Position numbers and translations under genes: made by a program
Notes under the pieces: generated by a model
What the model was told of the DNA's origin: nothing
Databases searched by the model: none
What the model saw: only the letters and a program-made list of their open reading frames with translations
In this document: piece after piece, positions 52,070 to 64,000 of the stretch
Layout: every line of letters starts with the position of its first letter
Numbering within the stretch: the stretch's first letter is position 1
Assembly (NCBI RefSeq): GCF_003334255.1
Contig: NZ_QOWU01000003.1
From: Escherichia coli
GTDB lineage: Bacteria; Pseudomonadota; Gammaproteobacteria; Enterobacterales; Enterobacteriaceae
Strand: one strand, 5' to 3'
Length of the DNA stretch: 64,000 nucleotides

Positions 52070-52188
52070 GGGATCTTCAATCATCAGTTAATAAACCAGC
52101 GAAACATCTTAGAGCAAAGTTGCGCTGGCATAAATAAGCAAAAAGCCTCGCTGATAAATCAGACAAGGCTCGACTTGCAGGCAGGTTT

Positions 52189-55540: not shown

Positions 55541-56518
55541 ATGCTTTTAGCTACGGCACTGTTAATTGTTGGTTTACTTTTGGTCGTTTACAGTGCCGAC
55601 CGCCTGGTTTTTGCCGCGTCTATTCTTTGCCGAACCTTTGGCATCCCGCCGCTGATCATCGGCATGACGGTGGTCAGTATTGGTACATCGTTACCAGAAG
55701 TCATCGTCTCGCTTGCCGCGTCTCTGCACGAACAACGCGATTTAGCCGTTGGTACAGCCCTCGGCTCAAACATTATCAATATATTGCTGATCCTCGGTCT
55801 GGCTGCGCTGGTTCGTCCTTTTACCGTCCATTCTGATGTTCTACGCCGTGAATTACCCTTAATGTTGTTGGTCAGCGTGGTGGCCGGTTCCGTACTCTAT
55901 GACGGACAACTTAGTCGCAGCGATGGTATCTTTCTCCTCTTTCTGGCTGTGCTATGGCTGCTGTTCATTGTTAAACTTGCACGTCAGGCTGAACGTCAGG
56001 GGACTGACAGCCTGACCAGAGAGCAGCTTGCAGAGCTGCCGCGTGACGGCGGATTGCCCGTCGCGTTTTTATGGCTCGGCATTGCGCTTATCATCATGCC
56101 AGTGGCCACGCGGATGGTGGTTGATAACGCCACGGTGCTGGCGAATTACTTTGCCATCAGCGAGTTGACGATGGGTCTGACGGCAATTGCTATCGGAACC
56201 AGCCTGCCGGAACTGGCAACCGCAATAGCGGGGGTTCGCAAAGGTGAAAACGACATTGCTGTCGGAAATATCATTGGCGCAAACATTTTTAATATTGTCA
56301 TCGTGTTGGGTTTACCCGCGCTGATAACGCCAGGAGAGATTGATCCACTGGCGTACAGTCGTGACTACAGCGTGATGTTGCTGGTGAGCATTATTTTTGC
56401 GTTGCTGTGCTGGCGGCGCTCCCCGCAACCGGGCCGTGGTGTAGGGGGATTATTAACTGGCGGATTTATCGTATGGCTGGCGATGTTGTACTGGTTATCG
56501 CCAATACTCGTTGAATAA
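55541..56518 (+). CDS. yrbG: Na+/Ca2+ exchanger (CaCA) family inner membrane protein
   Basis: 325 aa; duplicated alpha-repeat motifs (GTSLPE). Confidence 0.9.
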   Translation: MLLATALLIVGLLLVVYSADRLVFAASILCRTFGIPPLIIGMTVVSIGTSLPEVIVSLAASLHEQRDLAVGTALGSNIINILLILGLAALVRPFTVHSDVLRRELPLMLLVSVVAGSVLYDGQLSRSDGIFLLFLAVLWLLFIVKLARQAERQGTDSLTREQLAELPRDGGLPVAFLWLGIALIIMPVATRMVVDNATVLANYFAISELTMGLTAIAIGTSLPELATAIAGVRKGENDIAVGNIIGANIFNIVIVLGLPALITPGEIDPLAYSRDYSVMLLVSIIFALLCWRRSPQPGRGVGGLLTGGFIVWLAMLYWLSPILVE

Positions 56519-62380: not shown

Positions 62381-63235
62381 ATGGTACTGATGATCGTCAG
62401 CGGACGTTCAGGTTCAGGTAAATCTGTCGCCCTGCGTGCGCTGGAAGATATGGGTTTTTACTGCGTGGATAACCTTCCCGTAGTGTTGTTACCCGATCTG
62501 GCTCGAACCCTGGCCGATCGCGAGATTTCTGCCGCCGTCAGCATTGATGTTCGTAATATGCCGGAGTCACCAGAAATATTCGAACAGGCGATGAGTAACC
62601 TGCCTGACGCTTTCTCACCGCAACTCCTGTTCCTGGATGCCGACCGTAATACCTTAATTCGTCGTTACAGTGACACGCGCCGACTGCATCCGCTTTCCAG
62701 CAAAAACCTGTCGCTGGAAAGTGCTATCGACAAAGAAAGCGATTTGCTGGAGCCTCTGCGTTCGCGAGCGGATCTGATTGTCGATACCTCAGAAATGTCC
62801 GTTCACGAGCTGGCTGAAATGCTGCGTACCCGTCTGCTGGGTAAACGTGAACGCGAACTGACCATGGTCTTTGAGTCTTTCGGCTTCAAACACGGTATCC
62901 CTATCGATGCAGATTACGTCTTTGACGTGCGCTTCTTGCCGAACCCGCACTGGGATCCGAAACTGCGTCCAATGACAGGTCTTGATAAACCTGTCGCCGC
63001 GTTCCTCGACCGCCACACAGAAGTACACAATTTTATCTACCAGACGCGAAGCTATCTTGAGCTATGGTTACCTATGCTGGAAACCAACAACCGTAGCTAC
63101 TTGACGGTCGCCATTGGTTGTACCGGCGGGAAGCACCGTTCGGTGTATATTGCAGAGCAACTGGCAGACTACTTCCGCTCGCGCGGTAAAAACGTCCAGT
63201 CACGCCATCGTACGCTGGAAAAACGTAAACCATGA
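62381..63235 (+). CDS. rapZ: RNase adapter protein RapZ (P-loop NTPase)
   Basis: 284 aa; Walker A (GRSGSGKS). Confidence 0.95.
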
Positions 63236-63504
63236 CCGTCAAGCAAACTGTTGAAATCACAAACAAGCTGGGCATGCATGCCCGGCCTGCAATGAAGCTG
63301 TTTGAATTAATGCAGGGTTTTGACGCTGAAGTGCTCTTACGTAATGACGAAGGCACCGAGGCTGAAGCCAACAGCGTTATTGCGCTGCTGATGTTGGATT
63401 CTGCCAAAGGACGGCAGATTGAAGTTGAAGCGACCGGTCCACAGGAAGAGGAAGCACTGGCCGCCGTTATCGCCCTCTTTAATTCTGGTTTTGATGAAGA
63501 TTAA
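63232..63504 (+). CDS. npr: Nitrogen-related phosphocarrier protein NPr (HPr-like)
   Basis: 90 aa; HPr fold with active-site His (GMHARPA); ATGA overlap with rapZ. Confidence 0.95.
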
Positions 63505-63650
63505 TCTTCATCACTTTGACATACAACTCCCTTCAAACTCCCCCCGACAATAAGAAAATCACGTACTGAAATCGTTCTCAATCAACGTCATTTGTACATT
63601 TTGTGCGCTTTTCACTTTCAGAAGAACCTTAAGAAAACCTTAAGAGGCAT

Positions 63651-63667
63651 TGTTTAGGTTTTGTTTA
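63651..63667 (+). promoter_or_regulatory. PhoP box (direct repeat TGTTTA-N5-TGTTTA) in yrbL promoter
   Basis: Exact TGTTTAggtttTGTTTA about 50 nt upstream of the yrbL ATG. Confidence 0.75.
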
Positions 63668-63717
63668 AGTTAATCGACCATACTGGAGATCGTCAGAAAA
63701 TATTTCCAGGAGATGGC

Positions 63718-64000
63718 ATGATTCGCTTATCTGAACAAAGTCCCCTGGGCACCGGAAGACATCGGAAATGTTATGCGCATCCGGAAGATGCCCAACGCTG
63801 TATCAAGATTGTCTACCATCGTGGCGATGGTGGCGATAAAGAGATCCGCCGTGAGTTAAAGTACTACGCGCATCTTGGTCGCCGGTTAAAAGACTGGAGT
63901 GGAATACCGCGCTATCACGGTACCGTTGAGACGGATTGCGGAACCGGTTATGTCTACGATGTGATTGCAGATTTTGACGGCAAGCCTTCCATTACGCTGA
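63718..64000 (+). CDS. yrbL: PhoP-regulated protein YrbL (5' part only; continues past window end)
   Basis: ATG at 63718 reads MIRLSEQSPLGTGRHRKCYAHPEDAQRCIKIVYHRGDGGDKEIRRELKYY… open to the window edge. Confidence 0.85.
   Translation, partial: MIRLSEQSPLGTGRHRKCYAHPEDAQRCIKIVYHRGDGGDKEIRRELKYYAHLGRRLKDWSGIPRYHGTVETDCGTGYVYDVIADFDGKPSITL

Follow-up and report, generated by a model that had tools for sequence, protein, structure and literature searches.

The DNA upstream of yrbL in Escherichia coli carries a short direct repeat, TGTTTA-GGTTT-TGTTTA, and the question raised by this locus is whether the repeat is a functional box for the regulator PhoP, through which yrbL would be switched on when Mg2+ is low, or whether it is better explained as a chance motif of intergenic DNA, as the target of another OmpR-family regulator, or as a place where PhoP blocks transcription. 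The repeat lies close to the end of a 64,000-nucleotide stretch of E. coli DNA, which was analysed as a whole and is referred to below as the window. In the RefSeq annotation the gene order is rpoN-hpf-ptsN-rapZ-npr, followed by a 213-bp spacer and then yrbL, whose coding sequence is cut short by the window's end. The identity of the gene is secure, since RefSeq names its product "PhoP regulatory network protein YrbL" in every one of the 5426 complete genomes of E. coli, and the full-length protein (taken from locus L001 of the genome collection described below) matches the NCBIfam equivalog NF007671 with 399 bits, the cut-off being 227. The final 600 bases of the window are matched in all 5426 of these genomes and are 100% identical to those of K-12 derivatives. 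The features of the region around the repeat are, in order:

63232-63504, plus strand: npr (ptsO), the last gene of the rpoN operon and the 5' neighbour of yrbL, from the ORF list and the annotation
63651-63667, plus strand: PhoP box TGTTTA-GGTTT-TGTTTA, a direct repeat read from the sequence
63655-63660, plus strand: vestigial -35 hexamer TAGGTT, inside the PhoP box, 18 nt from the -10 hexamer and with four mismatches to TTGACA
63679-63684, plus strand: -10 hexamer CATACT, 11 nt (63668-63678) past the end of the PhoP box (63667)
63686-63692, plus strand: putative start-site zone of yrbL, from homology with Salmonella and the usual -10 spacing
63708-63712, plus strand: Shine-Dalgarno sequence AGGAG, with 5 nt between it and the ATG, from the sequence and conserved in the alignment
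63718-64000, plus strand: 5' part of yrbL, the coding sequence continuing past the window end, from the RefSeq annotation

The published PhoP consensus is (T/G)GTTTA-5nt-(T/G)GTTTA (PMC3335776; PMC5775216), and positions 63651-63667 agree with it without a single mismatch, the two GTTTA cores occupying 63652-63656 and 63663-63667 of the plus strand. The initial annotation had described an exact PhoP direct repeat with a 5-nt spacer, placed upstream of yrbL, and both parts of this description are borne out: neither strand of the 64-kb window has another exact copy of TGTTTA-N5-TGTTTA, and the site starts 67 nt 5' of the yrbL ATG (63718-63720). An exact match of this kind is expected by chance at a mean of 0.01 per window, and only one of 100 dinucleotide-preserving shuffles of the window contained any. 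When the motif is loosened to KGTTTA-N5-KGTTTA with up to two mismatches, the window holds 19 matches, with 14.3 expected, so the loose motif is not enriched and remains near chance level; thus only the perfect site at 63651-63667 stands out.

The initial annotation had also proposed a scan with a PhoP weight matrix, and such a scan places the site first by a margin of about 6 bits. The log-odds matrix was built from 37 Salmonella boxes defined by DNase footprinting (Table 1 of PMC3335776), and the yrbL box was excluded from it in order to avoid circularity. The 19-mer at 63650-63668 scores 22.67 bits and ranks first among about 128,000 window positions, while the next site in the window scores 16.31 bits and the best of the training boxes themselves 18.85 bits. 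In 100 windows generated by a first-order Markov model, the mean maximum score was 15.0 and the highest 18.33, and none of the 100 reached 22.67. Within the window, the scan found no second high-scoring PhoP site near the box. Two weaker candidates elsewhere were rejected as their scores lie in the range of the random windows just given: one at 55559-55577 (plus strand, 16.3 bits), which is situated just inside the ORF 55541-56518, and the other at 52076-52098 (minus strand, 14.7 and 12.4 bits). The 19-mer at 52080-52098 has its first 14 bases, TGGTTTATTAACTG, in common with the Salmonella phoP box.

The position of the box relative to the promoter elements is as informative as its sequence. 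The proposal that the box overlaps or replaces the -35 element of a yrbL promoter agrees with the anatomy of the region, in which the poor hexamer TAGGTT is covered by the box and the -10 hexamer follows 11 nt on, as in the Salmonella yrbL promoter. A scan of 63200-64000 for consensus sigma-70 promoters found none, a result that fits an activator replacing the -35 contact and is not evidence against a promoter. The sequence features of what has been termed PhoP "architecture I" are all found here, namely a single box in direct orientation, a distance from box to -10 close to 12 nt (11 nt here), and overlap with a poor -35. The yrbL promoter of Salmonella enterica was assigned to this architecture, with a class II mechanism predicted (PMC3335776), and by analogy a class II contact between PhoP and RNA polymerase may be supposed at the E. 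coli promoter as well. Activation independent of alpha-CTD has been demonstrated for mgtA only and is a prediction for yrbL (PMC3335776).

In Salmonella, the yrbL box TCGTTTAGGTTTTGTTTAA lies 11 nt from the -10 hexamer CATACT, the -35 hexamer is TAGGTT (four mismatches), the spacer between the two hexamers is 18 nt and the leader is 32 nt long (PMC3335776). This orthologous box, CGTTTAGGTTTTGTTTA, belongs to the set defined by DNase footprinting, and a single start site, mapped with S1 nuclease, was seen only in the wild type at 10 uM Mg2+ (PMC3335776). The two promoters therefore have in common a single direct box, the spacer GGTTT, the second hexamer, CATACT at a distance of 11 nt and TAGGTT, and they differ in the first hexamer (Salmonella CGTTTA, window TGTTTA), the difference falling on the degenerate position 1. 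The mapped Salmonella start is only 2 nt past the -10 hexamer (PMC3335776), which is unusually short, so a slight error could lie in the assignment of the hexamer or in the mapping of the end. For E. coli, transcription would begin near 63686 if the 32-nt Salmonella leader is carried over, and near 63691 if the usual distance from -10 to +1 is assumed.

Shigella lies phylogenetically within E. coli, and its yrbL promoter can be compared directly with the window. The 19-mer predicted as the PhoP site of Shigella flexneri 2a, tTGTTTAggtttTGTTTAa (PMC5775216), is identical to the window, with no difference in the box. A fragment carrying the yrbL promoter of this strain is shifted in gels by phosphorylated PhoP (Lin et al. 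2018, PMC5775216), and yrbL expression in a phoPQ deletion falls to 0.02 of the wild-type level by microarray and 0.07 by qRT-PCR (PMC5775216). In E. coli itself, yrbL reporters respond to controlled PhoP levels, with early saturation and noise, and of the reporters followed by single-cell imaging that of yrbL gave the weakest and noisiest PhoP response (PMC13215669), indicating that PhoP is not the sole determinant of yrbL output. Other E. coli papers handle yrbL as a PhoP-regulated, Mg2+-responsive gene, while Perez 2009 (PMC2650801) does not mention it. The recognition of yrbL as a PhoPQ target, which the initial annotation had taken as given, is thus well founded, the gene being treated as a direct target in the literature on Salmonella, Shigella and E. 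coli. As for the suggested comparison with published footprints, the Salmonella orthologue belongs to the footprint-defined set and E. coli footprint and start-site data are cited second hand.

The canonical PhoP-activated genes mgtA, phoP and slyB of E. coli and Salmonella resemble yrbL in having one direct box that overlaps the -35 region and precedes the -10 by about one helical turn. Their boxes are 12 nt from the -10, whereas that of yrbL is 11 nt from it, and they have no adjacent PmrA box, unlike yrbL. This second box, which was absent from the initial annotation, is found just upstream of the PhoP box:

63628-63644, plus strand: PmrA/BasR box CTTAAG-AAAAC-CTTAAG, the repressor input according to the literature, 6 nt 5' of the PhoP box

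The site fits the PmrA/BasR consensus YTTAAK-5 nt-YTTAAK. It is the sole exact match in the window, and with up to one mismatch there are 2 matches, compared with 0.10 expected. The E. coli yrbL promoter has been described as bearing both PhoP and PmrA sites, which are about 24 bp apart in Salmonella (PMC2681069); in the window the two boxes are 23 nt apart from start to start. PmrA represses yrbL (PMC3335776), and a regulator table lists the gene under "BasR, PhoP". In evolved E. coli B lines in which basR, eptA and arn are up, yrbL is consistently down (PMC13405929). Another gene with the same pair of inputs is pmrD, which is likewise activated by PhoP and repressed by PmrA and forms, jointly with yrbL, a bi-fan motif in the literature; the products of the two genes are unrelated, and the distance between the PmrA and PhoP boxes is about 38 bp at pmrD and about 23-24 bp at yrbL (PMC2681069).

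Conservation across genera was assessed in a genome collection in which the YrbL peptide GTGRHRKCY was sought by means of a degenerate codon pattern. The exact 9-residue peptide was demanded, which skews the sample to close relatives; it includes no Salmonella, Klebsiella or Enterobacter. The scan returned 26 loci, 24 of them enterobacterial, and the other two (L008 from Sphingomonas and L024 from Tannerella) were dropped as chance matches to the degenerate pattern. With L002 and L004 also dropped, which came without upstream DNA, 22 loci were analysed. In 18 of the 22, belonging to Escherichia, Citrobacter, Pseudocitrobacter, Siccibacter and Intestinirhabdus, the best PhoP-matrix site within 200 nt 5' of yrbL lies 66-71 nt before the ATG and scores 13.1-22.7 bits, and in the same 18 it is followed at exactly 11 nt by (C/G)ATACT and preceded at 5-7 nt by a repeat resembling CTTAAG-N5-CTTAAG. 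A weak PhoP box remains in Cedecea and in an Enterobacteriaceae MAG, with TAGACT or CATACT 11 nt further on. A Pluralibacter MAG (L017) retains the CTTAAG repeat and lacks both CATACT and a good PhoP-like site, and in a Pseudocitrobacter MAG (L006) both boxes are absent and the DNA 5' of the -10 is unrelated to that of the other loci, a divergence that could reflect a rearrangement or an assembly join.

The frequency of the majority base per column, computed over 19 well-aligned enterobacterial sequences, shows which parts of the promoter have been kept. It is 0.97 for the first GTTTA core and 0.92 for the second, 0.97 for the -10 hexamer and 0.96 for the CTTAAG repeat of the PmrA/BasR box. 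It falls to 0.63 and 0.58 at position 1 of the first and second hexamers, to 0.66 in the spacer from the PhoP box to the -10, to 0.53 in the linker that separates the boxes and to 0.47 farther upstream. In most Citrobacter relatives the second hexamer is CATTTA. The refinement that these data bring is that the PmrA box, the PhoP box and the -10 constitute a module of fixed spacing across several genera.

With this evidence at hand, the alternatives can be weighed. A chance motif without regulatory role, arising in AT-rich intergenic DNA, has some initial appeal since short T-rich repeats are common in such DNA and the versions of the motif with two mismatches occur at chance level in the window (19 and 14.3). 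It is nevertheless barely conceivable for the perfect site, as an exact match is expected just 0.01 times per window, the matrix score exceeds the maxima of 100 of 100 random windows, and the cores, always equally far from the -10, are kept in five genera or more while the linkers around them diverge. Moreover, binding and phoP dependence have been published for identical or orthologous sequences (PMC3335776, PMC5775216).

The other alternatives accept that the repeat is a regulatory site and differ as to which protein uses it, or to what effect, and together they are very unlikely, if slightly less so than chance. Since PhoP and PmrA half-sites are alike, the repeat could be read by PmrA/BasR through TTTAGG-TTTTG-TTTAAG, the sequence at 63653-63669, which is one mismatch away from YTTAAK-N5-YTTAAK and has an equivalent overlap in locus L023; PmrA input is already accounted for, however, by the perfect and separately conserved PmrA box just upstream. 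A box lying over the -35 could in principle also occlude RNA polymerase, making PhoP a repressor of yrbL, in which case loss of PhoP should raise expression, whereas deletion of phoPQ makes it collapse about 50-fold (PMC5775216) and activity of the promoter in Salmonella is confined to the wild type at low Mg2+ (PMC3335776). The reading that we prefer, with a probability of roughly 95%, is that PhoP acts on the E. coli yrbL promoter through the box at 63651-63667, a real and functional site that was already known. Our confidence in the box derives from sequence, statistics, geometry and conservation as analysed here, and binding, phoP dependence and repression by PmrA are taken from the literature. 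As a discovery the site has little weight, being an example from the literature; its value is that of a positive control for the reading of raw sequence at exact coordinates.

The way in which the PhoP box would act can be outlined as follows. Low Mg2+, or else antimicrobial peptides, acid pH or an osmotic upshift, is sensed by PhoQ and leads to phosphorylation of PhoP, a head-to-tail dimer of which would bind the two GTTTA cores. Standing 11 nt, or one helical turn, before CATACT, PhoP would take the place of the missing -35 contact and recruit RNA polymerase in the manner of a class II activator, and transcription of yrbL would then begin about 30 nt before the ATG. PmrA/BasR, bound at 63628-63644, represses the promoter and counteracts PhoP, although the mode of this repression is conjectural.

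A further stretch of conserved DNA lies upstream of both boxes:

63591-63612, plus strand: conserved block TTTGTACATTTTGTGCGCTTTT, with a majority-base frequency of 0.89, compared with 0.47-0.56 in its flanks

The block lies about 16 nt 5' of the PmrA box, is kept in Escherichia, Citrobacter, Pseudocitrobacter, Siccibacter and Intestinirhabdus, and is recognisable in the Pluralibacter MAG. Its conservation is not explained by an RNA element, as an Rfam scan of 63200-64000 returned no family other than a meaningless snoRNA match (E = 0.33). Comparison by eye with consensus sequences gave no convincing fit to a site for sigma-54, CRP, OmpR, RstA or TyrR, to an Ada box or to a marbox, and a literature search combining yrbL and SELEX found no paper. 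The block may or may not belong to the yrbL promoter; it could be a candidate site for a third, undescribed input.

Within E. coli, the yrbL intergenic region is variable, 1420 genomes being just 90-95% identical over 226 nt. Alleles of the box region were counted as 45-mers over 63636-63680, and three of them account for 5410 of the 5426 genomes: TGTTTA-GGTTT-TGTTTA, the allele of the window, in 3366 genomes; TGTTTA-GATTT-CGTTTA in 1196; and TGTTTA-GGTTT-CGTTTA, found for example in O157:H7, in 848. They differ at 63646, 63658 and 63662, and about 38% of genomes have CGTTTA as second hexamer. Among the variants sampled, the polymorphic positions are two in the linker that separates the boxes (63646, 63647), one in the 5-nt spacer (63658), one at hexamer position 1 (63662) and two in the spacer from the PhoP box to the -10 (63673, 63675), and none falls within the GTTTA cores. 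A second refinement follows from these variants: inside the E. coli box only hexamer position 1 and the 5-nt spacer vary, so that the "perfect" box is the majority allele and not a universal one, and the constrained element is GTTTA-N6-GTTTA. It is a tentative idea, on balance rather doubtful, that the three alleles tune PhoP affinity between lineages or that the block at 63591-63612 is the site of a third input, the two being judged here jointly.

One genome, Ecol_AZ161 (L028, at about 2670-2680), carries an insertion of the IS66-family element ISEc23 (tnpA, tnpB, transposase) within the -10 hexamer, at about window position 63683, which parts the PhoP box from yrbL.
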